A DNA stretch of 64,000 nt from Candidatus Uhrbacteria bacterium (GCA_016844925.1 JAERTI010000055.1:1459-65458); one strand, 5' to 3'. Positions 20,119-41,291 are shown, numbered from the stretch's first letter. Notes: a model not told the origin generated them from the sequence alone. Program-made: numbers and translations.

Positions 20119-20607
20119 ATGGACGACGACCCAGCCCGCCGCGCGCAACGCTTTCCACTGCTGATCAAACTCGACGAAGACGGTATCGAGTTCACGCACT
20201 TCTTCAACCGCATGGGGCACGTTCGCCTCCCACCCCAGTTCCCCGACCCGCTCCAGAAGCGTGTCCTACAGCTGATCGAACGACTCATGGCTCTACAGAT
20301 CCAAGCCCTCCAGCTCATCCCCGATGAACTACCTCGCTACCAGATCAACGGCACCTGGTCCCCGCTCCCCGCCTCGCTCACCCCAGAGACAGAAGACACC
20401 CTCTTGCTGACTGCCTGGTGGATGGAGCTCGAGAGACGAAAGACCACCCGCCACGACGACTGGGACTGCCAGGAGTGCGGGAAGCTCGTCACACGCAAGC
20501 GTGGAATCTGCCAGAATCACGAATGTGTCTCGTGGGACATCCTCCACATCATCACGGGAGACCCTCATCTCCACCTCGTGCCCAAGACCGGCACAGACAA
20601 CGACTGA
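20119..20607 (+). CDS. hypothetical protein with C-terminal CxxC...CxxxxC zinc-ribbon-like motif (GC-rich)
   Basis: 162 aa, AGGAGA RBS. ..DWDCQECGKLVTRKRGICQNHEC.. No family recognised. Confidence 0.45.
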   Translation: MDDDPARRAQRFPLLIKLDEDGIEFTHFFNRMGHVRLPPQFPDPLQKRVLQLIERLMALQIQALQLIPDELPRYQINGTWSPLPASLTPETEDTLLLTAWWMELERRKTTRHDDWDCQECGKLVTRKRGICQNHECVSWDILHIITGDPHLHLVPKTGTDND

Positions 20608-20665
20608 CCCTCTTGAGGGTAACCTCTCCGATCTTACGTCGGAGTTTTTTCTTTATCCATTGACA
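20605..20665 (+). repeat. copy of the GACCCTC..GAGGGT terminator/-35 junction module (divergent copy)
   Basis: TGA-CCCTCTTGAGGGTA hairpin starting at the stop codon, a second hairpin CTCCG..CGGAG+T6, then TTGACA at 20660-20665. Same family as copies at 26907, 28507, 29149, 29526 and (minus strand) 41261-41291. Confidence 0.6.
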
Positions 20666-20767
20666 AAACACATAAAAAGCCCGTACGCTCCCATCGCTCA
20701 CACAAGAGGCAAGCAACTCCGCCCAACTCTTTGCACGCTCTAGGTGCTCGCGTGAGACAACAGGACC

Positions 20768-21901
20768 ATGGAACAGAGGCAGACCGCCTTGTTCGCCCCG
20801 CGGCTTCTCGTCGCATCCTTCATCATCCTCACGGGCGCTGCCTGCGGTGACCTCTCGGTCTCCGACACGGCGCTCAATGAGTTCGAGCACGCCGGTGGTG
20901 TGTGGGAAACGGACGATGGATTCAGCCACATCGTCTACGATGGCAACAGCTACGGCGACTCCATCACCGACTGCATGAGCACGGAGTACGACTTCGCCCT
21001 CATGTTCGGGGAGTGCTACGAGTACGCTTCCATCCCCTACGCCCTGGGCGCGGTGACGAGTGGCGGCACCATGGACGTGGAGAACCAGTCCACGGGCTCA
21101 TGGGCCACCATGGACGCCTCCAGCTTCCTGGACTTCAACGGCCTCACCCCCGGCATCGCCCGCGTGCTCTGCTACACGGACAAGCCGGAGGAGTACAAGG
21201 CCGACTGCGAGGTCGAGAACGACTACGACAGCTTCGCCCCGGACTTCTACATGGAGATCGACACGGGCGACTACAACACCATCACGGTCTACCGTGGCAG
21301 TGCCAGCAGCGGCCTGGGCGAAGTGTTCCTGGGCAAGGACGGCGACTACAACTGCGACGGCGTGGACACCCCGGACGCCACCGTGCGCCTGGTCCGCACC
21401 TCGCTGGCCTACGACAGCGCGATCATCGAGCTGCTGGGCGAAGGCGGTCACGTCACATGGCCCGAGTGCATGCCCGACGGCTGGTACGACGAGCCCGAGG
21501 ACACCGGCGGTGCCGGCGACACGGGTGGTGACACCGGCATGGCGGGAACCGGTGAGAGCGAGGAGGTTCAGAACTTCCAGTATCCACCGATGTTCTACAT
21601 CACGAAGATCAACGCCCTGTGGCAGGTGACGCCCCAGAGCCAGCAGGCCTACCAGGCCACGGCGGACAGCTTCTTCGAGGAGCACCACCCCGAGCTCTAC
21701 GGCAGCGACATCCACCTGTTCGTGATGCGCCGCATCGACGCGTACTTCACCGACGCCTCCACCCGCGTGTTCTACGACACCCTCCTGAACACCATGGACC
21801 TGGCCGTCGCGCTGGATCTGCAGGCCCCTGCGAACAAGATCTTCGGGCACTGGATCAAGAACTACCGCCACTGGGAAGCCAACCGACAGAACCCTTTCTA
21901 G
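20768..21901 (+). CDS. secreted lipoprotein (hypothetical, GC-rich)
   Basis: 377 aa. Signal peptide with lipobox (..ILTGAACG). Asp/Gly/Thr-rich. No known domain. Followed by terminator CCCTGACC-TACGAC-GGTCAGGG+TTTTTATTT (21907-21940). Confidence 0.5.
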   Translation: MEQRQTALFAPRLLVASFIILTGAACGDLSVSDTALNEFEHAGGVWETDDGFSHIVYDGNSYGDSITDCMSTEYDFALMFGECYEYASIPYALGAVTSGGTMDVENQSTGSWATMDASSFLDFNGLTPGIARVLCYTDKPEEYKADCEVENDYDSFAPDFYMEIDTGDYNTITVYRGSASSGLGEVFLGKDGDYNCDGVDTPDATVRLVRTSLAYDSAIIELLGEGGHVTWPECMPDGWYDEPEDTGGAGDTGGDTGMAGTGESEEVQNFQYPPMFYITKINALWQVTPQSQQAYQATADSFFEEHHPELYGSDIHLFVMRRIDAYFTDASTRVFYDTLLNTMDLAVALDLQAPANKIFGHWIKNYRHWEANRQNPF

Positions 21902-21984
21902 GAGGAACTCCCCCTGACCTACGACGGTCAGGGATTTTTATTTGTTTGGCATCAAAAAACTCAGGGAAAAACCCTGAGTGTTAC

Positions 21985-23115: not shown

Positions 23116-23116
23116 A

Positions 23117-23722
23117 TTACTGTTTGTCCTCCACGCTTACCGTTGTCATTACATCTCCGATAGCGATAGCGTCGACAATCTCGAGCCCTTCAGTCACGCG
23201 ACCAAAAATGCTGTAAGCCTTAGGGAGTGGTACGTCAGCCAACATGATGAAGAACTGAGAACCGTTGGTGTTAGGACCAGCGTTGGCCATGGCCACAATG
23301 CCACGCTCGTACTGATACTCATCCTGCAGCTCATCCTCAAAGCGGTAACCAGGACCACCGGTTCCGTTTCCATTTGGATCACCTCCCTGAATCACGAATC
23401 CTTCTTCGCGACGGTGGAATGTCAGGCCGTTGTAGTACTCACCCTCTGTCAGATAGACAAAGTTTGAGACGGTCTTAGGGGCCGTGTCGGCAAAGAGTTC
23501 AAAGACGATATCGCCTTTCTCTGTTGCAAGCCGAATCTGCTTTCCTTCAATCTTCTCAGCCTCCAGCACTCCAGGGAATGCCCATGCCTCCGGTGTTGTG
23601 TCTGCCACAATCTCTGTTTCGTTAATGGTTAGGTCTGTTTCCTCCTGTTCAGGCTGCGTCTGATTGCAGCCAGCCCCCATGAGCACGAGCAGTGCCAGGG
23701 GCACAAGTACAAATCGTTTCAT
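23117..23722 (-). CDS. ppiB: peptidyl-prolyl cis-trans isomerase, cyclophilin type (lipoprotein)
   Basis: Lipobox ..LMGAGC, then ..GDIVFELFADTAPKTVSNFVYLTEGEYYNGLTFHRREEGFVIQGGDPNGNGTGGPGY.F.DE......ERGIVAMANAGPNTNGSQFFIM is a textbook cyclophilin. Confidence 0.9.
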   Translation of the reverse strand: MKRFVLVPLALLVLMGAGCNQTQPEQEETDLTINETEIVADTTPEAWAFPGVLEAEKIEGKQIRLATEKGDIVFELFADTAPKTVSNFVYLTEGEYYNGLTFHRREEGFVIQGGDPNGNGTGGPGYRFEDELQDEYQYERGIVAMANAGPNTNGSQFFIMLADVPLPKAYSIFGRVTEGLEIVDAIAIGDVMTTVSVEDKQ

Positions 23723-23751
23723 ACGAGAATGAGATACTAAACCTTCTTTAG

Positions 23752-24315
23752 CTAAAATGCTAGTCCGAGCTGTGTCATGACCAGGTCAAATGACGGAGCT
23801 CCGAGAATCACGATCCCTGAAAGGATGGCGATCATGATGGAAAGCACAGCCACAAGCTTCTCTGCACGCATTGGAATGTGATCACAGTTTCGGCAAGTGC
23901 CAATGTACACAATCTTTCGATGCACCTCTACAGGCACAGGCTCGTGCGTCACCTTGCTCTCTGTGACAGAGACAATCGGTGCTTTCATCTCAATAGCCTC
24001 TTCCACAACCTGCTGTACCGTCTTTTCAATCTTTAACTCAACCGTCTGCTTTGCCACAGGCTTCTTGGCGACAGGTTTCTTAGCCGTCACCTTCTTAGCA
24101 ACAGGCTTTTTCTTCGCAACGGCCTTCTTCTTCGCCGCAGGTTTCTTTGCGGCGGTCTTTTTTGCGACCGGCTTCTTCGCAACCGTCTTTTTCTTTGCGA
24201 CAGGCTTCTTTGCTGTCACCTTCTTTTTTGCTGCAGCAGGTTTTTTTGCCGCAGGCTTTTTTGCAGCCGTCTTTTTCTTGGCAGCTGCCGATGGCGCCTT
24301 CTTTTTTGTCGGCAT
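23752..24315 (-). CDS. lysine/alanine-rich histone-H1-like protein with C-terminal TM anchor
   Basis: N-terminal ~100 aa of AKKPAAKKPVAKK tandem repeats, a short domain with ..CRNCDH.., then a C-terminal hydrophobic helix. Confidence 0.5.
   Translation of the reverse strand: MPTKKKAPSAAAKKKTAAKKPAAKKPAAAKKKVTAKKPVAKKKTVAKKPVAKKTAAKKPAAKKKAVAKKKPVAKKVTAKKPVAKKPVAKQTVELKIEKTVQQVVEEAIEMKAPIVSVTESKVTHEPVPVEVHRKIVYIGTCRNCDHIPMRAEKLVAVLSIMIAILSGIVILGAPSFDLVMTQLGLAF
24060..24300 (-). repeat. imperfect ~21-24-nt tandem DNA repeats encoding the KKPVAKK low-complexity tail
   Basis: Visible periodic ggcttcttcgc/ggcttttttgc units within the CDS. Confidence 0.6.
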
Positions 24316-24429
24316 AATGTTTCTCTCCCCGAGTCCCCCCGAGAAATAATGAACGAAAGACTGACATCGCGAGCACCCCTATGGCACATTCACTCCTGTC
24401 AGTCTCGAGAATTATGATTGTTGATGTCA

Positions 24430-24882: not shown

Positions 24883-25146
24883 ATACCCCCAGTATATCAG
24901 GAAACAAAAAATAGGGGGCTCGATGCCCTCTATTTTTTACTCCTCACCACCTCACCTTCCATTCGGTCCACCACGGCGAACGAGCGCTGGGACAATTTTG
25001 AGTCGGACAGTGTCCCTATAGATCTCAAAATTCGTACCAGCGATCGGTTCGCCCAGCCATAGCGAGACTACACGCCCCCATCTCGACAGGCTCGATGAGT
25101 ATTTGTCGAAGCAATCGAAAAGCCTCAAGTGTCTGCTTCACGAGCA

Positions 25147-26238
25147 CTAGAACAGCTTCCCTTCCTCTGCATCTGGCTGCATTTTCTCTCGCTCACGAGT
25201 AGGCCCCTCCCACGGGAATCCCTCTCGACCAAAATGCCCGTAGCTCGCTGTCGCCTGATACACAGGCTTGAGCAAATCTAGTCGCTCCACAATCGCCTCA
25301 GGCCGAAAATCAAACTTCTCTTTAATCAAATTTGTCAGGTCCATCTTAGCCCCCTTGGACTTCACGCCTATCCCAGCCGCATGAATATGCACGGGTTCAG
25401 CGCGACCCATCGAATACACCAGGTTCACCATCGCTGCAGACGCCAGGCCCTCTGAAACAATGTAGCGCGCGGCGTGCCGAGCCATGTACGAACCAGCACG
25501 ATCCACTTTCCCTGGATTTTTTCCAGAAAGTGCACAGTCCCCATGTGGAATCAGACCCCCATAGGTATCCACGTTCGACTTGCGCCCACTGGCACCAGAG
25601 TCTGCGCGGAATCCCACCTCTGTGAAACTTCCAATGGGATTAATGTAAAGCTGCGCGCCCTGCTCTCCCACAATCGGTACGAGCAACCGCTCCAGAAGTG
25701 CTGTCTGTACATCCTTGTCAGCCACGCTCACCTGGTGCGATGCACACACGGTCACGCCCACCACCTTGTCGCGGTCCATGACCACCTGCACTTTTCCATC
25801 AGGCTTGAGCCAAGAGAACGCAGGATCTGTCTTGCGCAAGTCATCAAGCCGTCGAGAAAGGTTGTGTGCGTAGACCACTGCCCGCGGCAGAAGCTCGCGC
25901 GTCTCACTCGTCGCGTACCCGTTAATCACCACGTTATCCGTCGTGCCGTTTTTAATGCGCTTCATTTCATCGGACTGCGCCTCGATGTTTACAAACACCT
26001 CCACATCATCTCGGTAGCCGATGTCCTTATACACCTTCTGTGCGAGCGCCCCGATATCAAAGTCCGCCGTTGAGGTCACCTCCCCACCAATCATCATCAT
26101 TCCGTGACTCCCCATTACATTGAGATCCACCTGGGCCTGTGGGTCTCGGCGCAAATATTCATCAACAATAGCATCGGCAATCTGGTCACAAACCTTATCC
26201 GGATGCCCCTGTGTAACAGATTCAACAGTCTTTTTCAT
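25147..26238 (-). CDS. metK: S-adenosylmethionine synthetase
   Basis: ..VESVTQGHPDKVCDQIADAIVDEYL..DP.A.V........G...IGGE.T... is the bacterial MetK signature. Start taken at internal ATG (MKKTVES..). The ORF-track N-terminal extension begins at a TTG. Confidence 0.9.
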   Translation of the reverse strand: MKKTVESVTQGHPDKVCDQIADAIVDEYLRRDPQAQVDLNVMGSHGMMMIGGEVTSTADFDIGALAQKVYKDIGYRDDVEVFVNIEAQSDEMKRIKNGTTDNVVINGYATSETRELLPRAVVYAHNLSRRLDDLRKTDPAFSWLKPDGKVQVVMDRDKVVGVTVCASHQVSVADKDVQTALLERLLVPIVGEQGAQLYINPIGSFTEVGFRADSGASGRKSNVDTYGGLIPHGDCALSGKNPGKVDRAGSYMARHAARYIVSEGLASAAMVNLVYSMGRAEPVHIHAAGIGVKSKGAKMDLTNLIKEKFDFRPEAIVERLDLLKPVYQATASYGHFGREGFPWEGPTREREKMQPDAEEGKLF

Positions 26239-26348
26239 AGCGACGACAGGATAACAGATGAGTACCCTACCTTCAATTGTTGACAACTCACAGGGAGCAA
26301 GGTGAAATGCCTCAGCCGCACACGATGTGACGGTAGAAAGGCCTCTCG

Positions 26349-26891
26349 ATGCCCCCTGCTCCTGCTCCCCCGTTCCTGACTCGACTCGACGCCTACAGCC
26401 TCTCCCAAGCCGAGAACATCCTCTTCCTGGGAAGCCTCTGGTTCCTGTTCATGAGCTTCCTCATGTTCGTGCAGCCGGGCCCTCTGGATCCGAAGCTGCT
26501 AATCGGCATGACCATCACGCTTCTGGCCGGCGTTGGACTTGGGTGCTGGAGCATCTGGTACCAGCTCACCGGCGAGCACAACGTGTACAAGAAGTTCATC
26601 ACCCTGTGTGAGGAGCAAAGGCTCCTGCAGCAAGGTGAAGAGCTCGCCGCCAGCTACGCGCAGATCAACAGACTCCGACGCATCTACAAGGAAGACACGA
26701 GCCTGTCTGAGACCATGGTGGCGCGCATGCTCAAGGACCTCGACCTCGAGGAAGAACTCCTCCGCGAAACGCAGGTGGCCCTCCACCTCAAGCAGGCGCC
26801 GCTCCTGCAACGAGCCTTCGAGGCAAGCCGCCACGCGTTCCCCTGGGAGAACTTCACCGAGACGGCCAAGCAACCCGCTGTGAGCACCTAG
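26349..26891 (+). CDS. 2-TM membrane protein with C-terminal coiled-coil (island cassette 1)
   Basis: 180 aa. RBS AGAAAGG 7 nt upstream. Two hydrophobic helices then a charged helical tail. GC-rich. Confidence 0.5.
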   Translation: MPPAPAPPFLTRLDAYSLSQAENILFLGSLWFLFMSFLMFVQPGPLDPKLLIGMTITLLAGVGLGCWSIWYQLTGEHNVYKKFITLCEEQRLLQQGEELAASYAQINRLRRIYKEDTSLSETMVARMLKDLDLEEELLRETQVALHLKQAPLLQRAFEASRHAFPWENFTETAKQPAVST

Positions 26892-26906
26892 CTCACGACG
26901 CCCACC

Positions 26907-26939
26907 GACCCTCACGCGAAGGGTCTTTTTCTTTTGACA
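26907..26939 (+). repeat. terminator/-35 junction module copy
   Basis: GACCC-tcacgcgaa-GGGTC, T5, CTTTTGACAA (TTGACA 26934-26939). 17 nt later TAACGT. Confidence 0.65.
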
Positions 26940-26991
26940 AAAGCTCTCAAAACTCCTAACGTCACCCCCTGCTCTTTCAAAGGAGACGCGG

Positions 26992-28509
26992 ATGGCAACG
27001 ACCAGACTCCGGTGGCTCAGCCGGTACCCAATCCCGGGAACAACTGGCCAGCTCATCGGTTCCAAAACAAACGGACTACGCCCTGCAGCAAACGCCTCAG
27101 GTGTGCTTTCAGAGCACATGTCCAACCACGTCCTGAAGAAAATCAATGGCGACCCAGAAGTTCTCGAAGAGATCCTCAGGGCCGTGGTCAACTACTCGGT
27201 GGCCGATTTCCAATGTGCCGCGCATGCGCGCACGGCCATCTTCCGGTGCCTGGTGCAAACGGGTGACAAGTACCTCACTCAACTAGACAGCCTGCTCACC
27301 AAAGCCCACAGGACCTTCTCCAGAATCCCCTACGCTCTGAACATGATCGGCTTCACTGAAGCATGCGGGTTCCGCTACGATCGCGTCGAGCACTACCTCA
27401 TGCTCATCGAAACCCTCGATACCTTCATGGCACGTGAGGTGGGGCCCTGGCTGCCACACGACGACAGACGGAAGCGACCTGCTTACGTTAGCGGTGCGGC
27501 CAAAGGCCTGTCAGAACAACTCGGTCTCGAACCAGGTTCTCTGAAAGCGCTCGGTAAGCCTCCGCTCAGACTTAGACCACGAACTCTCGCTCTAAGCTGC
27601 GAGCTTCACCTCACAGCGCCGGGCGTGAACGAGCTCATGCAGTACACCACGGCCGGCGGAATCGCCCTCACCCTCGGGGCCCTCTGGAGGACCGTCGATG
27701 CCATGCTCCACGCGGGCATGTCTTCCGGATCATTACGCAAGTTCGTCGAACGACTGAACGTCCCCATGCTTCGCTGGGCGCACCAATGCCTCCAAGCAGG
27801 CTCCATCGATCTCAAGATGGTTCGTGCACTACCCCAGCAGCCACTGGACTGGTACATCGCACAGAAAGACCTAAACCTAGACGTTCTCCCTGTGCTGAAA
27901 GCCTGGTCCGATGAAGGCCACCCCTGTGGGTGGAGTGAGTGGATCAAGTTGGGTGGTACCACAGACGCCTGGCAACAAGAGGCCAAAAGGCAGGAGCAGC
28001 GCAAACTCGAACGAGAAGCGCACTTCGCTCAAAAGCAGGCAGGGACAAAGCCGCCATCGCCGCGACCCAAACCAATCCCTACGGTGTCACCTGCGAATCA
28101 AACCCCCACGGGAAGAAAGCGACACCATCCTGGCCACAAAGCACAAGAGCAGACGCAGGAAATCAACTGGGGGGAGACTCTCGTGAATCTCGTAGAGATG
28201 GTTCAAAGCCACCTAGACGATGTTGATGACAATCTCTCCGCTGGAATCCTCCTCTCGCTCATCCGCTCGGGTGATCGCCTCATGCCACGGTCCCGCTGGC
28301 CCAAGATGAAACTCAACAAGCTTCGTCGAGAAGTGAAGCGGCTGGTCGACGGCGCAAGCAACCGTGAGATCAATGCCGCGCTTGGATCCCTAGAGGCCAT
28401 CCGCCTTGTCCGGCAGACCGCTGGCAAGTACCACATCTCCGAAACCACGCCGCGCCACACGGGCGCAGCCGAAATCCGCAAAAGGCTCATCAGCCTCTGC
28501 AGCTCCTGA
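26992..28509 (+). CDS. 505-aa hypothetical soluble protein (island cassette 2)
   Basis: RBS AAAGGAGA. No recognisable motif. Pro/basic-rich linker (..KPPSPRPKPIPTVSP..) between two helical halves. Confidence 0.5.
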   Translation: MATTRLRWLSRYPIPGTTGQLIGSKTNGLRPAANASGVLSEHMSNHVLKKINGDPEVLEEILRAVVNYSVADFQCAAHARTAIFRCLVQTGDKYLTQLDSLLTKAHRTFSRIPYALNMIGFTEACGFRYDRVEHYLMLIETLDTFMAREVGPWLPHDDRRKRPAYVSGAAKGLSEQLGLEPGSLKALGKPPLRLRPRTLALSCELHLTAPGVNELMQYTTAGGIALTLGALWRTVDAMLHAGMSSGSLRKFVERLNVPMLRWAHQCLQAGSIDLKMVRALPQQPLDWYIAQKDLNLDVLPVLKAWSDEGHPCGWSEWIKLGGTTDAWQQEAKRQEQRKLEREAHFAQKQAGTKPPSPRPKPIPTVSPANQTPTGRKRHHPGHKAQEQTQEINWGETLVNLVEMVQSHLDDVDDNLSAGILLSLIRSGDRLMPRSRWPKMKLNKLRREVKRLVDGASNREINAALGSLEAIRLVRQTAGKYHISETTPRHTGAAEIRKRLISLCSS

Positions 28510-28536
28510 CCCTCCTGAGGGTCTTTTTTCTTGACC
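28507..28536 (+). repeat. terminator/-35 junction module copy (stop codon included)
   Basis: TGA-CCCTCCTGAGGGTC-TTTTTT-C-TTGACC. -10 TACGGT 17 nt downstream. Confidence 0.7.
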
Positions 28537-28593
28537 AAGCCCTCCATCTCCCCTACGGTGGCCCTCCGGCGTACGCTGGTAAAGGAACGTACC

Positions 28594-29151
28594 GTGTCAC
28601 CACACCACACCCCTTTCGAGCAAAGAAAGGGGCCCACCTACTTCACCTACGACGAAGTGCTCGCAAAGAGCGACGTGCAGATCATTGCCCTGAGCCTGCT
28701 GATCCCCGTGATGTTTGGCGCTCTGGCAGCGGCCTGGATCTACTTCCCCATCCCAACCACCGCCCAAGACAACATCCCGCTCTTGGTGACCGCTGGCTTG
28801 ATCTCCTCGCTCTGCGCCGGAGGCATCGGCGTCTCGCGCCTCCTGCGCTTCGACCGCACGCTTCACGCCGTGCGAACAAGCGACGAGGGAAAGAGGCTCT
28901 TCAACCGAGGGAGCACCTTGGCCACACTCCACCAGGCAATCCTGAAGGAGGAGGAAGATAACCACTTTCCTCGAACCAAAGATTCCTTTGAAAAGCGCGC
29001 ACAACGCTACCTTGACCGCTGGACGTACTACATCTCGCAGGCCGAGGCGCTCCACCGAGAGCAGCACAACCTCCTCAAGCTCTTCTACCGAAACGAAAAG
29101 CAGCCCGATCCCTGGAAGGATCGATGCAACTGCCCCAAGTTCGGACTCTGA
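28594..29151 (+). CDS. 2-TM membrane protein with charged C-terminal tail (island cassette 3)
   Basis: GTG start 6 nt after AAAGGAA. ..IIALSLLIPVMFGALAAAWIYFPIP.. and ..LLVTAGLISSLCAGGIGV.. helices. Confidence 0.5.
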   Translation: MSPHHTPFEQRKGPTYFTYDEVLAKSDVQIIALSLLIPVMFGALAAAWIYFPIPTTAQDNIPLLVTAGLISSLCAGGIGVSRLLRFDRTLHAVRTSDEGKRLFNRGSTLATLHQAILKEEEDNHFPRTKDSFEKRAQRYLDRWTYYISQAEALHREQHNLLKLFYRNEKQPDPWKDRCNCPKFGL

Positions 29152-29179
29152 CCCTCCTGAGGGTCTTTTTTCTTTGACA
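29149..29179 (+). repeat. terminator/-35 junction module copy (stop codon included)
   Basis: TGA-CCCTCCTGAGGGTC-TTTTTT-CTTTGACAA. -10 TTAGAT 17 nt downstream. Confidence 0.7.
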
Positions 29180-29239
29180 ATTCAACAAATCAACGCTTAG
29201 ATACCGACGTCACAGCACGCGTGACAGAAAGGATGCTTC

Positions 29240-29518
29240 GTGAGCGAACAGAAGATTACCCCAGCTGCCCTGCGCACGGCCTTCAAGCAGTCCATCAGAA
29301 ACTCTCTGGTGGTGGCACTCATCCTGGTCATCTCCATGGCCGTTCTGAGATTCGGCGTCTCACCGGAACCCAACGCAGAGGCCCATGCAATCGTCCTGGG
29401 CTTTGCTGCGCTCCTGCTGGTGATCGTCCTCTGGCACATGATCGGCAACATCTTCTTCTACTGGACCCACCCCGTCCGACGCGCAGCACTCCCAGACCAC
29501 CAGGAACCCTCCTCCTGA
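29240..29518 (+). CDS. small 2-TM membrane protein (island cassette 4)
   Basis: 92 aa. GTG start 6 nt after AAAGGA (same RBS-to-start geometry as cassette 3). The overlapping 135-aa ORF in another frame reads through the terminator and is rejected. Confidence 0.45.
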   Translation: MSEQKITPAALRTAFKQSIRNSLVVALILVISMAVLRFGVSPEPNAEAHAIVLGFAALLLVIVLWHMIGNIFFYWTHPVRRAALPDHQEPSS

Positions 29519-29525
29519 CCACGCC

Positions 29526-29569
29526 GACCCTCCTGAGGGTCTTTTTTCTTTTCCGCAGAACCATTGACA
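29526..29569 (+). repeat. terminator/-35 junction module copy
   Basis: GACCCTCCTGAGGGTC-TTTTTT-CTTTTCC...TTGACA (29564-29569), 17 nt, TATATT (29587-29592). Confidence 0.7.
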
Positions 29570-29651
29570 TTTCAGTTAAAATGAACTATATTCTCGCTCT
29601 GCTTCATTTGTCATGGTGGAGCGGATGAACCCTACTGAAAGGAGACATGAC

Positions 29652-30491
29652 GTGAGGAAAATCCTCTTTCCCCTGCTGGTCGCGGCGGCCACGCTGCTCA
29701 CCGGCTGCTACGGAACGAACGTGGTCATCAACCCGGCGGAAGTCGGACGCGAGCTGAACCCCAGCGGGCTCAGCGAGACGATCCTCCAGCCGAGTTCCTT
29801 CAACCTCGACTGGTGCATGTACACCTGTCCGAAGCTGGTCCGCCTCGAGGTCGCCAAGGCCACCCGCGAGATCACCATCGAGCGCGTGTTCCTGCCCAAG
29901 AGCAACGTGGACCTCAGCGACGTCGAGATCGCGATGCAGTTCCGCGTCCGCCAGGACCAAGACTCCATCAACACGGTGTTCTCCGAGGTCACCCCGCAGC
30001 CCGCGGGTGTCGAGGACACCATGCTCATCTCCAACGAGATGATCTACGCCACCTACCTCGAGCGCATCGGCCCGGAGGCCGTGATCGAGGCGCTGCGTGA
30101 GTACACCGTCGAGGACGTGCTCTCCAACGTGGGCGAGATCGGCGCGCACTCGCGCGACATGGTCAACCAGCGACTGGGCGACAGCCCCGTCGAGGTGACC
30201 GAGCTCTCCTTCCCCAACGGCATCGGCGACCCGCCCGAAGAGGTCCTGGTGGCCAAGCGGCTGCTGTACGCGGTCGACGAGGAGAAGGCACGCGAGGTCA
30301 AGGCCCTGGAGGCCGAGCTCGCCGTGGAGGAGCAGCGCCAGGCCGTGCAGATGGCCCGCGCCAAGAACGACCTGGCCGTGGCCAAGGTGGTGGGCGTCCG
30401 CTACGACGTCTACACCGAGCTCAAGATCATGGAGCGCTTCGCCGAAGAAGAAGTGCCCCTGGGCTACATCCCCGGCGCCAGCGGCCGATAG
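29652..30491 (+). CDS. SPFH/band-7 (stomatin/prohibitin/flotillin/HflK-like) domain lipoprotein
   Basis: GTG start 7 nt after AAAGGAG. Signal peptide with lipobox LLTGC. ..SDVEIAMQFRVRQ.. and especially ..FPNGIGDPPEEVLVAKRLLYA.DEEKAREVKALEAELAVEEQRQAVQMA.. match the SPFH core including the DPPEEV hallmark. Confidence 0.7.
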   Translation: MRKILFPLLVAAATLLTGCYGTNVVINPAEVGRELNPSGLSETILQPSSFNLDWCMYTCPKLVRLEVAKATREITIERVFLPKSNVDLSDVEIAMQFRVRQDQDSINTVFSEVTPQPAGVEDTMLISNEMIYATYLERIGPEAVIEALREYTVEDVLSNVGEIGAHSRDMVNQRLGDSPVEVTELSFPNGIGDPPEEVLVAKRLLYAVDEEKAREVKALEAELAVEEQRQAVQMARAKNDLAVAKVVGVRYDVYTELKIMERFAEEEVPLGYIPGASGR

Positions 30492-30503
30492 AAGGAGAAC
30501 GAC

Positions 30504-30887
30504 ATGAACTTCCTCGGACTGATTTCCTTCCTGGTCTTCGTCGCCCTCCTGATCGGCGGCGGTCTCTGGGCGATCCGTCACTCCATCACCCGTGAGGAGG
30601 AGGACGAGCGGAAGATCTTCAAGTACGGTGGCTGGGTGGCCATCGCCCTGGGGGTGTTCATCACCCTGGGCGTGCTCAACAGCTACGGCAAGATCGACGC
30701 CCCCAACCCCCTATCCGCTCCCGAAGCCGAGATCTCCTCGGTTCCCGCGGAGCGCGCCGAACCCCGAGCCCCCACCTTCGAAGAGGACACCACTCCCTCG
30801 GAGATGGAGAAGGCGCGGGAGGATCAGCGCAAGTCGGTGGACGAGTTCACCGAGCACACGAGCAAGGACGACGCGACCGACGAGTAG
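30504..30887 (+). CDS. small 2-TM membrane protein, likely SPFH-partner (NfeD/YqiJ-like role)
   Basis: 127 aa. RBS GAAGGAGA. Two TM helices then an acidic tail. Starts 13 nt after the SPFH gene (operon). Confidence 0.5.
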   Translation: MNFLGLISFLVFVALLIGGGLWAIRHSITREEEDERKIFKYGGWVAIALGVFITLGVLNSYGKIDAPNPLSAPEAEISSVPAERAEPRAPTFEEDTTPSEMEKAREDQRKSVDEFTEHTSKDDATDE

Positions 30888-30902
30888 TCGCGCCCCTGCA
30901 CC

Positions 30903-30928
30903 CCTGGCCACACCGGTCAGGGTTTTTA
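30903..30928 (+). terminator. terminator after SPFH operon, with an adjacent convergent terminator for the minus-strand hydroxylase gene at ~30940-30965
   Basis: CCCTGG-CCACACCGGT-CAGGG+TTTTT. The second hairpin is CACCGC-tgcgt-GCGGTG with an A-run on the plus strand. Confidence 0.5.
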
Positions 30929-30966
30929 CATACAAAAAAATCACCGCTGCGTGCGGTGAGTTGCGT

Positions 30967-31851
30967 CTAGCCAGCGTCGGCGCGCTGGAAGGTTGCCCAG
31001 CGCCAGGGCGTGAGCCAGTGGGCGGTGAGCGTGGGCGGTATCTCGACGTCCTGCAAGCCAACTTGCTCGAGCTCTCGATCCTTGGGCAAGAACCGAGTGC
31101 CAAACACGATGTCCCACAGAATCAGGTTGCTGGAGAAGTTGGTGTTGGACTCCCCCATGACCTCACTGTGATGCCAGCGGTGCAAGTCGCACGTCGCCAA
31201 GATCCAGTTGAGCGGACCGAGGATCACGCGGATGTTGGCGTGCTGCATGCCACCGTTAATGGCCGTGAAGACACTGAACAGCACCAACGTCTGCGAACTC
31301 GCTCCCAGCAGGACCAGCGGCGCCACGGGCGCGAGGTACGTTGCCAGGAAGTTGATCGGGTGCAGGCGCGTGGCCGAGAAGAAGTACAGCTTGTCCGAGC
31401 TGTGATGCACCGCATGGATGCGCCAGAGCCAGTCCCACTTGTGCAGCGCGCGGTGCGCCCAGTAGAACCCGAAGTCGCCGATGACCAGCGCGAGCAAGAG
31501 CTCGAGCGAGAGTGGCCAGTGGTGTGGCCACAGGCTGCTGCCCGCCATCGCGGCCGCCTTCATGGATCCCCAGACCAGTGCACTGAAGCACACGGCCTGC
31601 ACTAGCGGCGGAAAGATCACCGCCGTGAAGATGAGATGCCAGAGATCCACCTTCACTTCACGGCGCCCTACGCGCCAGTCCTCTCGGTGCGGCATGCACA
31701 CCTGCACGATCATCACCGCCACCCCCGCCACAATGGTCGTGGCAAAGGTGATCAGCGTCTCGTCCACCCCCAACGTCAGCAGCGATCCAGCTGTGACCAG
31801 GGCGATCAGCAGAACTCCCGGGTACAGCGCGTGTTCAATCAGCTTCATCAT
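30967..31851 (-). CDS. fatty-acid hydroxylase superfamily protein (sterol desaturase / C-4 methyl-sterol oxidase-like), multi-TM
   Basis: Three histidine boxes in canonical order: HRALH, HAVHH, HRWHH. Four or more TM helices. GC-rich. Confidence 0.7.
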   Translation of the reverse strand: MMKLIEHALYPGVLLIALVTAGSLLTLGVDETLITFATTIVAGVAVMIVQVCMPHREDWRVGRREVKVDLWHLIFTAVIFPPLVQAVCFSALVWGSMKAAAMAGSSLWPHHWPLSLELLLALVIGDFGFYWAHRALHKWDWLWRIHAVHHSSDKLYFFSATRLHPINFLATYLAPVAPLVLLGASSQTLVLFSVFTAINGGMQHANIRVILGPLNWILATCDLHRWHHSEVMGESNTNFSSNLILWDIVFGTRFLPKDRELEQVGLQDVEIPPTLTAHWLTPWRWATFQRADAG

Positions 31852-31975
31852 TACCCCCTATCCGAGCCCGAGCGGCTCGAAGCCAGATTGTCACGCACAT
31901 GCGTGAGTGTCAATAAAGAGTTGACAAGCCCCCCTTGGGGCCCTAACCTCCAATCACCTGCGACTGGAGATTGAC

Positions 31976-32803
31976 ATGCAGAGAATCTTGGAGATTGCGC
32001 AGAAGGCCGCCAAGGCCGGCGGGCAAGAACTCGCCCGATTCCGTGGTGAGAGGATCGCCCTGGAGAAACGCACCAAGCTGGACGGCTCGGTGGTCACCGC
32101 CGCCGACGGTGCGGCTTCCGTCGTGATCCGAGATGTCATCCTGGCCCACGACCGCGACGCGTTCATCGTGGACGAAGAAGACCCGACCTCGCACGATCGC
32201 GAGCGCCCGGACCGCATGTGGGTCGTGGACCCCCTCGACGGAACCCGCACCTTCGCCAGCGGCAGGGATGGCTACTGCACCCTCGTCGGCTACGTGGTAG
32301 ATGGTGTCCCCCGCGTGGGAGTCATCTACTTCCCGGACACGAAGATCATCGTCTACGGCGGCAAGGGTCTCGGCGCGTGGATCGACGCCCCGTCGCTCAC
32401 CAGGCCCACCCGTCTTGCGGGATGGTCGCCTGAGGCCCTCGAGAACAGCAGGCTGTTCATCCCGGACAAGCCCGAGGCGCGTGAGCTCTACAAGCGCCTG
32501 ACCACCGCGCTGGGCACCAACCAGCTGGAAGGTCAGAACATCGCAGGGGCCATGTACCTGGCCCTGCTGCGCAACGCCTGCGAGTTCGTCATCACCCGCA
32601 TGGACAACCCGTTCATCTGGGACATCGCGGCCCCGCACGCCCTCCTGCTCGCCATCGGTGGCGACATCGTGAACCTACGCGGAGAGCCCATCGACTACCA
32701 GAGAACCACCCTGCTGGAGCACGGCACGATCGGAATGATCCACCCGCACCTCCTCCCCCAGATCCTCGAGCGTCTTCCCCCACTGGAACAGATGCGGATC
32801 TGA
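31976..32803 (+). CDS. inositol-monophosphatase family phosphatase (CysQ/SuhB-like)
   Basis: ..DGSVVTAADGAASVVIRDVI........FIVDEEDP.. and ..WVVDPLDGTRTFASG.. (WxxDP(I/L)DGT motif). Terminator CCGCCT..AGGCGG+ATTTTTG follows. Confidence 0.7.
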   Translation: MQRILEIAQKAAKAGGQELARFRGERIALEKRTKLDGSVVTAADGAASVVIRDVILAHDRDAFIVDEEDPTSHDRERPDRMWVVDPLDGTRTFASGRDGYCTLVGYVVDGVPRVGVIYFPDTKIIVYGGKGLGAWIDAPSLTRPTRLAGWSPEALENSRLFIPDKPEARELYKRLTTALGTNQLEGQNIAGAMYLALLRNACEFVITRMDNPFIWDIAAPHALLLAIGGDIVNLRGEPIDYQRTTLLEHGTIGMIHPHLLPQILERLPPLEQMRI

Positions 32804-32863
32804 ACGCCCCGCCTAAGGCCTAAAACCAAAGGCGGATTTTTGTTATCCACACCCAACCCTTGC

Positions 32864-32905
32864 GTTCGGTTTTTGTTCGGTGCACAATGCGAACAGAAAG
32901 CGAAC
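32864..32905. promoter_or_regulatory. candidate LexA operator: 16-nt-arm imperfect palindrome GTTCGGTTTTTGTTCG-N10-CGAACAGAAAGCGAAC, 10 nt upstream of lexA
   Basis: Seen directly in sequence. Each arm is itself a GTTCG/CGAAC direct repeat. GAAC/GTTC half-sites are the core of Gram-positive-type SOS boxes. Confidence 0.45.
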
Positions 32906-32914
32906 AGCAAATCT

Positions 32915-33529
32915 ATGTCCAATCTCACAAAGAAACAATCAGAAGTGCTCAAGATCATTCGCCAGCACCTCGACACCGAAGGCTACGCCCCTTCGTACCG
33001 AGAGATCGCCGATGCTCTCGGCCTCTCCTCCCCCTCCACCATCCACGCGCATGTTCAAGCACTCGTGGAGAAAGGCCTGATCGCCACCGGTGAGGATGGT
33101 CGCGCACGCTCCATCGAGCTCGTCGACGAATCTCCTAAGGGACCTTCCGTCATGCTACCGCTTATGGGCATCATCACCGCTGGTCAACCTATTGAGGCTG
33201 TGGAGGACAATGAAGCCATGGCCGTGCCAGCAGACTTTGTCCTGGACGGCTCCAACTCATTCGTCCTGCGGGTAAAGGGCCGCTCCATGATTGAAGACGG
33301 CATCCTTGATGGAGACTTCGTCGTCATCGAGCGCAACCCTTCACCACGCAACGGTGAAGTCGTCGTCGCGCTGATGGACAATGCTTTTGCCACACTGAAA
33401 CGATTTTACCGAGAAAGAAACCGTATCAGACTTCAACCCGCAAACAGCACCATGGAACCAATCTACGTCCAAGATTGCATCATCCAAGGCGTTGTCCGAG
33501 CTGTCATACGAAAATTCCAACCAGTGTAG
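32915..33529 (+). CDS. lexA: LexA repressor
   Basis: N-terminal winged HTH (..LTKKQSEVLKIIRQHLDTEGYAPSYREIADALGLSSPSTIHAHVQALVEKGLI..). Cleavage-site region ..ITAGQPI.. C-terminal S24 peptidase (..VKGRSM......DGD.VVIE........GEVVVAL.D..ATLKRF). Start taken at internal ATG 32915. Confidence 0.9.
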   Translation: MSNLTKKQSEVLKIIRQHLDTEGYAPSYREIADALGLSSPSTIHAHVQALVEKGLIATGEDGRARSIELVDESPKGPSVMLPLMGIITAGQPIEAVEDNEAMAVPADFVLDGSNSFVLRVKGRSMIEDGILDGDFVVIERNPSPRNGEVVVALMDNAFATLKRFYRERNRIRLQPANSTMEPIYVQDCIIQGVVRAVIRKFQPV

Positions 33530-34431: not shown

Positions 34432-34451
34432 GAAAAAAGCATCCGTAGATG

Positions 34452-36328: not shown

Positions 36329-36337
36329 GGAGGTCGC

Positions 36338-36661
36338 ATGGTGAGAACCGCTTGGCTCTCGATCGAGCACATCGCTGTTTCTTCCAAGCAGCGCAAGAAG
36401 GTGTCCCCCAAGAAGGTGGAGAAGCACCGCAAGGCGTTTGAGGAAGACCGATTCGTCGAGCCCATCGACGTCGTGTCCTGCAGGACCGATGAGAAGGAGC
36501 GCTACCGCATCCTCGGCAACGGCCGTCACCGCTACTTCGGCGCGCTGGAAGCCGGCATGCCGCTCATCGAGTGCAAGATCCACGACTCGAGACACGAAGA
36601 CTGGGATACGCACAACCACCCCTCCGCCCCCCAGGGCGAGCGGGTGTTTTTCTTTTTTTAA
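36338..36661 (+). CDS. ParB/sulfiredoxin-like nuclease-domain protein
   Basis: 107 aa. ..VEPIDVVSCRTDEKERYRILGNGRHRYFGALEAGMP.. contains the ParB N-domain GxGRxR-type motif. GC-rich. The 3' end runs into a terminator hairpin plus TTTTTCTTTTTTT. Confidence 0.55.
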   Translation: MVRTAWLSIEHIAVSSKQRKKVSPKKVEKHRKAFEEDRFVEPIDVVSCRTDEKERYRILGNGRHRYFGALEAGMPLIECKIHDSRHEDWDTHNHPSAPQGERVFFFF

Positions 36662-36666
36662 AAATC

Positions 36667-37443
36667 CTACTCACCACCCACCTTCTTTATCCAGTTATCT
36701 AAATAAACTTTCACCTGATCCAGGCATCCTTGCTCTCGATATGAGTGACCAGCACCTGAAATAACATGAAGCTCTTTCTCTCCAGGAAGAACATCAAATA
36801 ATTTTTGTTGGTGCCTGGGGGGCGTACCTTCGTCTATCTCCCCAACAATAAGCAAAACGGGCATCGTGAGTTTCTTTGCGTCTTTCAGCAGGTCGTACTT
36901 AAGACGGTCTTCCATATGCGACCACGGGAGCCGCAGCTCAACACCAGGTTTTGATCTGCTCATCCGCGTCTGCCATCCTGTTTGCTTCCATTTATCGTCA
37001 TCCTCAGGGCGATGTGCCTCCTGAGACAACGCTCCGGAAATCACTGACGATATGGGGGCCAAGCCCATGATCTCTTCTGGGTGCTGCTCGGCATAGAGCG
37101 CCGTCGAGATACCTCCCAAACTATGCCCCACCAAAAAGAATGGAGCGCTGTACCAGTCTTGTGACTTCGACCAACTGATGACATCTTCAAGGTCGCGATA
37201 ATAACTCGTAATGGTCGCATCCTCATATCGTCCACCACTCTCGCCGATTGTATCTGCTGTGTCGAATCGAACTGTTGTAAACCCGTTATCTACAAAACAA
37301 CGTGCAAACATCTCGACATGCACCTGCTCCTTAAACCCACCAAGCCCATGCATCACAAAAGCAAGTCCACGAGATGCTTCGGGTTGCTCGATCACCACCG
37401 CAATCTTCTGACCTCTTCGATTCTCAATAAAAACCTTCTCCAT
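36667..37443 (-). CDS. alpha/beta-fold hydrolase
   Basis: ..FVMHGLGG.. (oxyanion HGxxG), nucleophile elbow GHSLGG, later Asp/His. Confidence 0.75.
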   Translation of the reverse strand: MEKVFIENRRGQKIAVVIEQPEASRGLAFVMHGLGGFKEQVHVEMFARCFVDNGFTTVRFDTADTIGESGGRYEDATITSYYRDLEDVISWSKSQDWYSAPFFLVGHSLGGISTALYAEQHPEEIMGLAPISSVISGALSQEAHRPEDDDKWKQTGWQTRMSRSKPGVELRLPWSHMEDRLKYDLLKDAKKLTMPVLLIVGEIDEGTPPRHQQKLFDVLPGEKELHVISGAGHSYREQGCLDQVKVYLDNWIKKVGGE

Positions 37444-37445
37444 AC

Positions 37446-38000: not shown

Positions 38001-38002
38001 AG

Positions 38003-39145: not shown

Positions 39146-41238
39146 AAGTCGTTTACATCTCTTAGAAAGCTCATGCCACTAATATCTTTTTTCACACGCT
39201 CCCCCATTTCATCGAGCACGATCGTGGGGCCGTCATCACTACGATCATTCCAACGAGAGCGACTCGGTGATGCGCTGTAGGCCGCCTTCAGTCGGACTTC
39301 TTCCAGAAGACCTGTTGGAAGCTCCTGCAAAAACTGTGAGGGCTGGCTTATCATGAGCGTATCATAGCCGGCAGTGATGGGATATGTGTAAAACAAGTGC
39401 TTTCGTGCGCGCGTGGTCGCTACGTAAAACAAGCGACGTTCCTCCTCAAGTCCGCCTTTCTCCTCCAGCGCACGACCGATTGGAAACTTCCCGTCGATCA
39501 GATGCATCACAAACACCGCATCCCACTCAAGTCCCTTGGCCTGGTGAATCGTTGAAAGAACCATCTTCTCATCATCCTCTCGTCCACCTTGCTCACGTAC
39601 AGATCCATAATCCGCACTTAACGAAACTTCGTCTAGGAACGTCGTGAGACTCTTATATCCCTCAGCAAACAACGCGAACTGTTCCAGATCGTCTAGACGA
39701 TCCATAAAATCTGGATACTCAGCCTCGACGTAATCCCGGTAGTCACCCCCGGTCACCGCTCGGATCAAATCTGCCGGGAGCTCTTCAGCTGACATCTTTG
39801 TGAGCGTACGCACAAGCATGGCCCAACTGGCCTGTGCCCTCTTAGGCACTTTAATCTCTCGGGTCAGCACATCCTGCAGAGCTTCTATGTCTCGTATTTG
39901 TCCGATAATTTTTTGTGCGGTCACGATACCGATCCCGTTCATGAGCCCGAGCACACGCATCCATGCCATCTCATCACGTGGATTCTGCTTAATGCGCAAG
40001 TGCGCCACGATGTCTTTTACGTGAGCACGCTCAAAAAACTTCAGACCGCCGCGATACTCATATGGGATATCACGCTTCATGAGCTCGAACTCGAGCGTCT
40101 GTGAATGAAAGGCTGCGCGGAACAAGACCGCGATCTCATTAAGAGGAACACCCTCATCTCGCAGCGCCAGAATACGCTGAGCAATAAACTGCGCCTCTTG
40201 AGAACTATTCGATGCCGGCACAAGATTCGGTCGCTCCATCTCACCGCGCACAGCCGTCAGTTCTTTTTTAAACTGATCTTTATTTTGTGTAATCGATGCA
40301 TTCGCCACAGCCAAAATATCTGGTGTAGATCGATAGTTGGTCGTGAGCCGAAATGTCTTTGTCTGATCGTACGTCTGTGGGAAGCCAAGAATATTCCTGA
40401 TCTCAGCTGCGCGGAACGAATAAATCGACTGAGCATCATCCCCCACGACCAAAATGTTTCCATGCTCGGATGCCAGCTGCCTGACAATCTCTGCCTGCAC
40501 AACGTTCGTGTCCTGGTACTCGTCGACCAAGATAAACTCAAACTGTTGTGCGAGCTTACGCCGCACCCCCTCATGGCTCTGCAAGAGCTTCCGCAGGTTG
40601 AGAAGCAAGTCGTCAAAGTCCATGCTGTCCGCCTCCCGCTTACGTACCTGGTACAGCTCGCCAATTCGTTCGATGATCGGCGCAATCTCTGTGAATGACG
40701 GATACTTCTGTTCAATCACTTGAGGAATCGTCTTCCCAGAGTTCATGCCGTAGCTAATCATGCCATGCAGCTTTGCTGGTGAAGGAAATCGCCGTGCACT
40801 CGTGTCGACGTTCAATGCCTTGATACAGACCTTCACCAAACTCTTTGCGTCCTCCTGATCTAGAATCGTAAAGCTTGGTGAGTAGCCAAGCTCACGGCCA
40901 TAGATACGAAGCAGACGATTCGCGATCGAGTGAAATGTCCCTCCCCAGAGCCCGACTGGGTAGCGTCCCAGGAGACCTTCGACTCGAGAGAGCATTTCTT
41001 TTGCTGCCTTGTTCGTAAACGTAACGAGCAGGATGTTGTCCGCACTCACGCCACGCTCAAGAAGATACGCCACACGATAGGTAATTGTCCGGGTCTTTCC
41101 AGATCCAGCTCCGGCGAGCACCAGGGCAGGGCCATCTCCATGAAGCACCACATCCAGCTGCTCAGGGTTTAATTCTGCTTTAAAATCAATCGTTGAGCGC
41201 GAAAGATCAAAGTCATCTTGTAAAACAAATTCTTTCAT
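39142..41238 (-). CDS. uvrD: ATP-dependent DNA helicase UvrD/PcrA
   Basis: Walker A ..AGAGSGKT.., motif II ..ILVDEYQDTN.., motif ..YRST.. and a C-terminal UvrD_C region. Confidence 0.9.
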   Translation of the reverse strand: MKEFVLQDDFDLSRSTIDFKAELNPEQLDVVLHGDGPALVLAGAGSGKTRTITYRVAYLLERGVSADNILLVTFTNKAAKEMLSRVEGLLGRYPVGLWGGTFHSIANRLLRIYGRELGYSPSFTILDQEDAKSLVKVCIKALNVDTSARRFPSPAKLHGMISYGMNSGKTIPQVIEQKYPSFTEIAPIIERIGELYQVRKREADSMDFDDLLLNLRKLLQSHEGVRRKLAQQFEFILVDEYQDTNVVQAEIVRQLASEHGNILVVGDDAQSIYSFRAAEIRNILGFPQTYDQTKTFRLTTNYRSTPDILAVANASITQNKDQFKKELTAVRGEMERPNLVPASNSSQEAQFIAQRILALRDEGVPLNEIAVLFRAAFHSQTLEFELMKRDIPYEYRGGLKFFERAHVKDIVAHLRIKQNPRDEMAWMRVLGLMNGIGIVTAQKIIGQIRDIEALQDVLTREIKVPKRAQASWAMLVRTLTKMSAEELPADLIRAVTGGDYRDYVEAEYPDFMDRLDDLEQFALFAEGYKSLTTFLDEVSLSADYGSVREQGGREDDEKMVLSTIHQAKGLEWDAVFVMHLIDGKFPIGRALEEKGGLEEERRLFYVATTRARKHLFYTYPITAGYDTLMISQPSQFLQELPTGLLEEVRLKAAYSASPSRSRWNDRSDDGPTIVLDEMGERVKKDISGMSFLRDVNDL

Positions 41239-41260
41239 AACGGGGCCATAGTATCATACG

Positions 41261-41291
41261 AGTCAAAAGAAAAAGACCCTCGTCAAGGGTC
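41261..41291 (-). repeat. terminator/-35 junction module copy (minus-strand orientation)
   Basis: Minus strand reads GACCCT-TGACGA-GGGTC-TTTTTCTTTTGACT directly after the stop of the 461-aa GC-rich gene and 22 nt before uvrD. Confidence 0.6.

Follow-up and report, generated by a model that had tools for sequence, protein, structure and literature searches.

The 64,000-nucleotide stretch of Candidatus Uhrbacteria DNA analysed here (GCA_016844925.1 JAERTI010000055.1:1459-65458; hereafter the window) contains a short repeated module in which a GC-rich hairpin is followed by a T-tract and then by a TTGACA-like hexamer. Five copies conform to the strict pattern GACCCT-N4-7-AGGGTC-T5-6-CTT, at 26907, 28508, 29150 and 29526 on the plus strand and at 41291-41261 on the minus strand, and a truncated copy is found at 20606. 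All of them lie directly behind genes of elevated GC content, four within an accessory island between metK and lexA and one between the gene of a 461-aa protein and uvrD. Copy counts and gene comparisons refer to the 64-kb window, and relatives are represented by contigs of about 20 kb each. The copies, together with the unrelated hairpin that adjoins the truncated one, are the following:

20606-20621, plus strand: truncated module (M0), hairpin GACCCTCTTGAGGGTA with the T-run absent; the TGA of the 162-aa gene overlaps it
20626-20665, plus strand: unrelated terminator hairpin CTCCGAtcttacgTCGGAG (CTCCGA..TCGGAG, 20626-20644), then T6CTTTATCCA, with TTGACA at 20660; opens the window-specific 377-aa unit
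26907-26939, plus strand: module M1, GACCCT-cacgcga-AGGGTC (26907-26925), T5, CTT, TTGACA (26934-26939); behind the 180-aa gene
28508-28536, plus strand: module M2, GACCCTCCTGAGGGTC hairpin, T6, C, TTGACC; the TGA of the 505-aa gene overlaps its 5' arm
29150-29179, plus strand: module M3, GACCCTCCTGAGGGTC hairpin, T6, CT, TTGACA; the TGA of the 185-aa gene overlaps its 5' arm
29526-29592, plus strand: module M4, GACCCTCCTGAGGGTC hairpin, T6, CTTTT; the Band7 unit has TTGACA-17-TATATT (29564-29592) as its promoter-like site
41261-41291, minus strand: module M5, GACCCT-tgacg-AGGGTC, T5, CTT, TTGACT; between the 461-aa gene and uvrD

The two halves of the module have the features of a terminator and of the beginning of a promoter. 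When folded, the five strict copies form perfect stems of 6-9 bp that contain no bulges (-9.1 to -12.2 kcal/mol) and are followed by T5-6, whereas the hairpin at 20606, which has no T-tract, lacks the stem-plus-T-tract form of a terminator. In all copies, the hairpin starts 0-15 nt past the stop codon or overlaps the TGA, which in three cases is built from a T and the first two bases of the stem, and the orientation is always that of the upstream gene; an upstream A-tract is absent throughout. Behind the T-tract, TTGAC(A/C/T) is present in all five strict copies, at a distance of 2-3 nt in four of them and of 16 nt at 29526, and matches the −35 box at 5-6 of 6 positions in all copies. At M1-M4, a TAnnnT hexamer follows 17-18 nt beyond TTGAC and precedes a purine-rich ribosome-binding site (RBS) and a start codon; the only strong promoter match, at 11 of 12 positions, is that of M4 (29564-29592, with the −10 element at 29587). 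The module is therefore read here as probably a Rho-independent (intrinsic) terminator to which the −35 box of the following promoter is fused. The initial annotation had offered a termination site as one of two possible roles of the repeat, and this half of the idea is borne out by the position of hairpin and T-tract, just past the stop codon and in the orientation of the gene.

Searches with looser patterns returned the same set of sites. The pattern GACCCY-N3-12-GGGTC has five palindromic sites (26907, 28508, 29150, 29526 and 41275), with 10 strand-matches compared to 0.43 expected from shuffled sequences, and the 20-mer GAGGGTCTTTTTTCTTTGAC, when up to three mismatches were allowed, identified the same five module sites against 0.02 expected. 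M2, M3 and M4, which stand behind three different open reading frames (ORFs), have 25 identical bases in common, GACCCTCCTGAGGGTCTTTTTTCTT, and AGGGTCTTTTTCTTTTGAC is common to M1 and the minus-strand copy M5 that starts at 41291. Four of the five strict copies are clustered inside 2.7 kb, and the 5-6 copies fall within 21 kb. Thus, the dispersed repeat family described in the initial annotation is real, with five strict copies, but smaller than claimed. The minus-strand copy reported at 41261-41291 is present, between the 461-aa gene (41304-42689, minus strand) and the uvrD start (41238). The copy reported at 20605-20665 is only partly so: the hairpin GACCCTCTTGAGGGTA and the TTGACA at 20660 exist, but no T-run follows this hairpin, and the T6CTTT belongs to the different hairpin CTCCGAtcttacgTCGGAG. 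We also considered the 7-mer GACCCTC as a DNA-uptake sequence and rejected the idea, with 18 occurrences on both strands against a 95th percentile of 17 and no excess beyond the hairpins.

The genes of the window fall into two classes. About 15 GC-rich genes (GC of at least 0.58; GC at third codon positions, GC3, 0.60-0.92) are mostly monocistronic, compared to 50 backbone genes (GC ~0.45-0.55, GC3 0.45-0.63) that mostly belong to tight operons. The module is found behind 5 of the 15 GC-rich genes (6 when the truncated copy is included) and behind none of the 50 backbone genes, so that the expected enrichment at GC-anomalous genes is significant when counted by genes (Fisher p = 3.6e-4), but, because four of the five carriers are adjacent, only 2-3 independent loci contribute to it. 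Copies behind ordinary backbone genes, which the initial annotation had named as evidence against its view, thus do not occur in the window. A terminator of their own is present in 12 of the 15 GC-rich genes versus 9 of the 50 backbone genes (p = 2e-5). The association is not universal as had been proposed for every gene that looks horizontally acquired, given that other GC-rich genes end in unrelated hairpins (20069, 21912, 30902, 30959 on the minus strand and 34453 on the minus strand). The companion claim that native genes employ different terminators agrees with the data: among the nine credible backbone terminators in the window, none has this stem or the T5-6CTT tail, compared to 8 of the 12 GC-rich-gene terminators with this tail (p = 0.002).

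Tails of the form T5-6CTT(T)(ATCC) also stand behind unrelated stems that follow GC-rich genes, in the window at 20645-20654, 34438-34429 (minus strand) and 36650-36657, and in the sister contig L159 at 3341 and 12217. A second stem type was observed behind two GC-rich genes, CCCTGACC..GGTCAGGG at 21912-21933 and CCCTGGCC..GGTCAGGG at 30902-30922, which hints at a second small terminator family.

The hairpin shape itself is widespread. When one genome per species was scanned for GACCCT-N4-7-AGGGTC-T5-(N)-CTT, at least 118 loci were detected; among the matches listed, many phyla are represented, nearly all with a single copy per genome, and many have an upstream A-tract. Extension of the pattern by TTGAC yielded 33 unrelated single-copy loci in metagenomes and one in viral contigs, and the exact 24/25-mer of the window module had zero matches in the JGI metagenomes. 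Because the shape is generic, the stem alone is not diagnostic, and only the local near-identity of the copies calls for an explanation.

A comparison with sister strains indicates that the genes between the modules behave as cassettes, as the initial annotation had supposed. The sister set consists of ten contigs from other samples (L159-L168), found by exact-protein look-up and 92-94% identical to the window at the DNA level, all of which show the same differences from the window. Genes between modules have been swapped or lost (505/181 aa, 377/476 aa and the Band7 pair), with breakpoints at 20620/1, about 26898-26939, 28506, 29560/30936 and 36654/5. The variable segments are:

20621-21979, plus strand: segment (a), the 377-aa unit in the window; a 476-aa gene and a 205-bp repeat in the sisters
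26898-28505, plus strand: segment (b), M1 hairpin, promoter-like region and 505-aa ORF; a different hairpin and a 181-aa ORF in the sisters
29561-30935, plus strand: segment (c), promoter, Band7/SPFH gene (29613-30491), 127-aa gene and terminator (30902-30927)
36655-37441: replaced gene (d), a hydrolase gene (36667-37443, minus strand); a SAM-methyltransferase gene, one for one, in the sisters

In segment (a), homology ends at 20620/20621, within the truncated hairpin; at this site the module of the sister strains is intact, GACCCTCTTGAGGGTC-T5-CA-TTGACA (L159, position 1812), and their 476-aa gene ends in GACCCC..GGGGTC-T6CTTTATCC. At the site orthologous to M1, the sisters carry ACGCCC-cacacga-GGGCGT-T6-A-TTTGACA, which has the same architecture and an entirely different stem, and in the window ACGCCCAC is retained and is followed by the GACCCT hairpin, the promoter-like region and the 505-aa ORF. 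The stem has changed while the hairpin and T-tract were kept, which indicates selection on structure and not on a recognition sequence. Homology is back from 28506, at the shared CTGACCCTC, so that the unrelated 505-aa and 181-aa ORFs end on one and the same module. Because the 181-aa protein is paralogous to the neighbouring 185-aa protein, the sister arrangement is probably the older one. The Band7 and 127-aa unit is absent from all ten sister contigs, with the junction at 29560. The replacement of the alpha/beta-hydrolase gene, seen in those sister contigs that reach this position, has its left junction immediately behind another hairpin, whose tail is T5CTT; it is a whole-gene replacement outside the GC-rich island.

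The island and its genes are as follows:

26349-32803: GC-rich accessory island between metK (25147-26286, minus strand) and lexA (32913-33529, plus strand)
26349-26891, plus strand: gene of a 180-aa small membrane protein, GC3 0.82
26992-28509, plus strand: 505-aa gene with no Pfam match, in the slot held by the 181-aa gene in sister strains
28594-29151, plus strand: gene of a 185-aa small membrane protein, paralogue of the sister-strain 181-aa gene (BLASTP E = 4e-7)
29240-29518, plus strand: gene of a 92-aa protein with two transmembrane segments, GC3 0.76

The status of 26349-32803 as an accessory island follows from the adjacency of metK and lexA in more distant Uhrbacteria (contigs L121 and L122). 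The small membrane proteins occur in this species cluster only. Among the module-bearing proteins inside the window no significant paralogy was detected, and the relationship became apparent only once the sister-strain 181-aa protein was added; the 180-aa protein shares with the latter only a C-terminal motif (BLASTP E = 1.2) and may be the first of a local family of paralogues. The 505-aa protein appeared orphan-like in a word-indexed search, and an exhaustive search brought up 19 remote homologues of comparable length, among them one with the name Parcubacteria. No function could be assigned to the hypothetical proteins of the GC-rich genes from Pfam, NCBIfam, PHROGs or PADLOC, the only signal from PHROGs and PADLOC being a lipoprotein-type match for the Band7 protein, and the island DNA had no match among phage and plasmid records. 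Over the 185-aa gene (28594-29151, plus strand), the Logan gene caller places an antisense 156-aa ORF (28597-29067, minus strand); the plus-strand ORF is preferred because of its codon-position GC, its RBS, the orientation of the terminator and its paralogy. High GC3 produces long shadow ORFs here.

The fifth strict copy belongs to a locus with a different history. The 461-aa gene (41304-42689, minus strand) is Uhrbacteria-specific and fast-evolving, stands in the syntenic order YceG / X / UvrD, and has homologues named Candidatus Uhrbacteria and Patescibacteria. The order yceG, 461-aa gene, uvrD is found in the window, in a 66% relative (from gene order only) and in a 47% relative (L121, L122), and in L123 (67%) uvrD lies downstream of the 461-aa orthologue. 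The gene is richer in GC than its neighbours in three lineages:

Window: 461-aa gene, GC/GC3 0.64/0.79; neighbours ~0.51/0.55
L123: 461-aa orthologue (215-1600), GC/GC3 0.57/0.62; neighbours ~0.46/0.38-0.46
L121: 461-aa orthologue (10001-11335), GC/GC3 0.66/0.82; neighbours ~0.55/0.56-0.70

Amino-acid identity of the 461-aa protein is 67% versus 84-88% for the neighbours in one comparison and 47% versus 62-78% in the other, which translates into faster evolution. Recent transfer does not account for a conserved gene that keeps its synteny and a raised GC content in three lineages; its composition might reflect GC-biased gene conversion at a hot spot of recombination. M5 is identical in a 97% relative (L124), and at the orthologous site the more distant relatives have longer hairpins with the base GACCCC/GGGGTC (L123) or GAGGGTCGG (L121), each followed by a T-run. 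Given these hairpins of the GACCC/GGGTC type, the terminator type is old and native to the 461-aa locus. The AlphaFold model of the protein (predicted local distance difference test score, pLDDT, 74.6) consists of a mixed alpha/beta N-terminal part and a long helical bundle; it had no fold match in the PDB at E <= 0.001, and a profile search of PDB sequences returned no match. Kinship of the 505-aa and 461-aa families was considered and rejected. Upstream of uvrD (41239-41262, minus strand) is an extended −10-like TGaTACTAT whose hexamer ends 9 nt before the ATG, leaving no room for an RBS; the same position is occupied by TGaTAGAAT in L123 and by TGcTAAAAT in L121. The uvrD transcript may have no leader or only a very short one.

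We propose the following scenario for the locus. The modules would part short, co-oriented, single-gene transcription units whose genes have high GC3, are specific to the lineage and vary among strains. The T-tract might double as an UP-like (upstream promoter) element for the next promoter. The terminators were presumably copied together with the small membrane-protein genes, at least two of which are demonstrable tandem paralogues, and repeated recombination joins inside the junctions could have homogenised the module copies. The gene swaps would most likely occur by homologous or homology-facilitated recombination after DNA uptake; uptake and homologous recombination of cassettes in this bacterium are assumed here, and the flanks of the cassettes are 92-94% identical between strains. 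Terminator-promoter junctions are the only non-coding DNA in which a join would leave both neighbours functional, and viable whole-gene swaps could hardly break elsewhere.

Several points weigh against this scenario or restrict its reach. The 25/25 identity of three copies behind different ORFs exceeds the functional need, and we infer that duplication or conversion produced it. The −10 elements are weak at M1-M3, and at M5 the TTGACT lies 7 nt from the −10-like TACTAT of uvrD, too near for it to work there as a −35 box. The intergenic spaces, of 80-160 nt, are almost entirely terminator and promoter, so that the location of the junctions does not show that the modules promote recombination. 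Furthermore, the module distribution was read from 64 kb of a 132,617-bp contig, and termination and promoter use in vivo are deduced from the DNA sequence.

An active role of the modules in recombination appears to us somewhere between doubtful and unlikely. In one form of this idea, which we consider doubtful though conceivable, the 25-33 nt of identity or the hairpin would anchor RecA-dependent or homology-facilitated illegitimate crossover, a function compatible with that of a terminator, and ORFs would be shuffled between fixed regulatory frames. Five informative junctions indeed fall within a hairpin or T-tract or at most about 12 nt from one; the unrelated 505-aa and 181-aa ORFs share the TGA that opens the same module; M1 retains the sister-type 5' arm ACGCCC before the new GACCCT hairpin, and M0 is cut between stem and T-run; and the loop of the window M2 agrees with those of M3 and M4 and not with that of its own ortholog. 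However, whole-gene swaps must break intergenically, where nearly all DNA is terminator and promoter, and to the right of the Band7 indel no GACCCT module is present. The hydrolase/methyltransferase replacement (36655-37441) has no flanking GACCCT modules either, its left hairpin being a different one with T5CTT. That the modules are preferred joints of a recombinase-independent cassette exchange, with ORFs acquired from the population slotted between a ready promoter and a stop-plus-terminator, would account for the 25-nt identity, for ORFs that end on the module TGA and for breakpoints inside hairpins; such exchange is, in our estimation, unlikely. A common donor was suggested in the initial annotation, and transfer of the GC-rich genes from one GC-rich organism or element, with retention of the donor terminators, could explain why these genes exceed the backbone in GC3 (0.67-0.92 versus 0.45-0.63), why the metK-lexA island is absent from L121 and L122, and why the T5-6CTT tail is limited to their terminators (8/12 versus 0/9). 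For the genes on which a common donor can be tested, the idea fails: the 461-aa carrier is vertical, syntenic and GC-elevated where the backbone GC is ~0.46, 0.51 and 0.55, terminators of the related GACCC/GGGTC type stand at the orthologous site, and the 505-aa family includes the Parcubacteria-named member. Together with the confinement of the small membrane proteins to the species cluster, the lack of a phage or plasmid DNA match, and PHROG and PADLOC searches that gave no signal save the Band7 one, these observations make a common foreign donor improbable.

Two further alternatives invoke dedicated enzymes. Near-identical copies behind unrelated genes would be expected if a 30-nt mobile palindrome, akin to repetitive extragenic palindromic (REP) sequences or miniature inverted-repeat transposable elements (MITEs), had been spread by a REP-associated tyrosine transposase (RAYT) or another IS200-type transposase and had come to be used as a terminator secondarily, and an ACGCC(C) remnant directly 5' of the M1 and M4 hairpins looks as if each had been inserted after an older terminator arm. 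This remnant argument, however, concerns 5 nt. REP elements with RAYTs are characterised by tens to hundreds of copies genome-wide and often by inverted pairs, compared to 5-6 copies in 64 kb here, four of them within 2.7 kb and all in one orientation, that of the upstream gene; a Y1 transposase (RAYT) is absent from the window, and the exact 25-mer is absent from the JGI metagenomes. We therefore regard such spread as quite improbable. Least credible, to the point of being extremely unlikely, is an integron-like array in which the hairpins are attC-type single-strand sites and a tyrosine recombinase moves co-oriented ORF cassettes, the analogy drawn in the initial annotation, even though four short co-oriented ORFs each end in a palindrome and the cassette content is strain-dependent. 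The attC sites are defined by the core sites R'' (RYYYAAC) and R' (GTTRRRY) (PMC5027507), and RYYYAAC...GTTRRRY pairs within 40-160 nt are lacking at all six sites on either strand. The conserved, bulged, one-stranded hairpin that the analogy predicts is likewise not seen: the palindromes are perfect and 16-19 nt long, with GACCCT(C)/(G)AGGGTC stems of 6-7 bp and no extrahelical bases, unpaired central spacer or variable terminal structure, both strands of each copy fold alike as DNA, and the 71-nt contexts are no stabler than shuffled sequences (z = -0.7 to -1.4). Moreover, an integron has an intI tyrosine recombinase and attI beside an array of cassettes that lack promoters; here, the units have promoter-like sequences of their own, the stem is not conserved at the orthologous M1 site, and neither integrase nor transposase turned up when 59 of the ~65 window proteins were scanned against Pfam or among the precomputed Pfam calls, which cover most of the others.

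Some other features of the region deserve mention. The 205-bp repeat of segment (a) is a dispersed element of ~205 bp, with one copy in the window (24901-25105) and three copies in the same orientation in L159 (3356-3554, 6637-6844 and 12237-12439; 87-91% identity), two of these at sites where the window lacks the element. A bidirectional terminator, A6-yAGrGGGCTCGATGCCCyCT-AT6, forms its beginning and is followed by a near-perfect hairpin of ~80 nt, GGCGAACGAGCGCTGGGACAATTTTGAGTC...CTCAAAATTCGTmCCAG...TCGCC; Rfam contains no match, and the element looks MITE-like or like a structured RNA. The window also encodes a histone H1-like (HC2-type) Lys/Ala-rich protein (23752-24315, minus strand), in a genome of the Candidate Phyla Radiation (CPR), with a Pfam score of 42 bits against a cut-off of 40 and scores below the NCBIfam cut-offs. 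A chlamydial origin of the DNA, which this match might suggest, was rejected in view of the Uhrbacteria and Patescibacteria names of the 461-aa homologues. A TM0106-family RecB-like nuclease with a Cas4-like domain (17431-18831, minus strand) adjoins the first GC-rich, strain-variable cluster (18862-21901). Upstream of lexA (32855-32905), GTTCGG / GCGAACAG repeats are conserved in L159 and may be SOS-box-like operators.

Taken together, these results are of the annotation level: they provide a clear example, from an uncultured CPR bacterium, of terminator-promoter junctions that part the lineage-specific genes of a small island variable among strains. The small membrane proteins might, speculatively, be relevant to an episymbiotic lifestyle. 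If the junctions do channel gene exchange, they would represent a simple, enzyme-free way of swapping accessory genes in a reduced genome. A puzzle of its own is why the 461-aa gene has elevated GC in three Uhrbacteria lineages, and it could bear on GC-biased gene conversion in bacteria.

With respect to known systems, the locus resembles integron attC arrays in its co-oriented ORFs, each with a palindrome behind it, and in a content that differs among strains, and departs from them in that the bulged 55-140 nt structure, the core sites, the strand asymmetry and the integrase are missing and the cassettes carry promoters. In the GC-rich perfect stem, the short loop, the T-tract past the stop codon and the −35-like TTGACA that follows, the modules are like intrinsic terminators that abut sigma-70 promoters. 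They are set apart by a stem shared by 5-6 copies in 21 kb, by 25 bases shared by three of them behind unrelated ORFs, and by the lack of the upstream A-tract that many of the copies from other phyla have. The elements of the REP family, including bacterial interspersed mosaic elements (BIMEs), are short palindromes repeated at the 3' ends of genes that are able to terminate transcription or to stabilise mRNA. The modules share with them this form and location, and differ in their very few copies, in their strict orientation relative to genes, in the T-tract that is part of the unit and in the lack of a RAYT gene in the window. In Neisseria, minimal mobile elements consist of different whole-gene cassettes within conserved flanking genes, with mobility genes absent (PMC3082526). 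Similarly, metK...lexA and the 162-aa gene...DUF4015 enclose cassettes that differ among strains and include no mobility genes, although here several slots of one island are parted by a repeated terminator-promoter module, and the host is a CPR bacterium. Among known systems, the closest to this locus would thus appear to be flexible islands of the replacement type or the minimal mobile elements of Neisseria.

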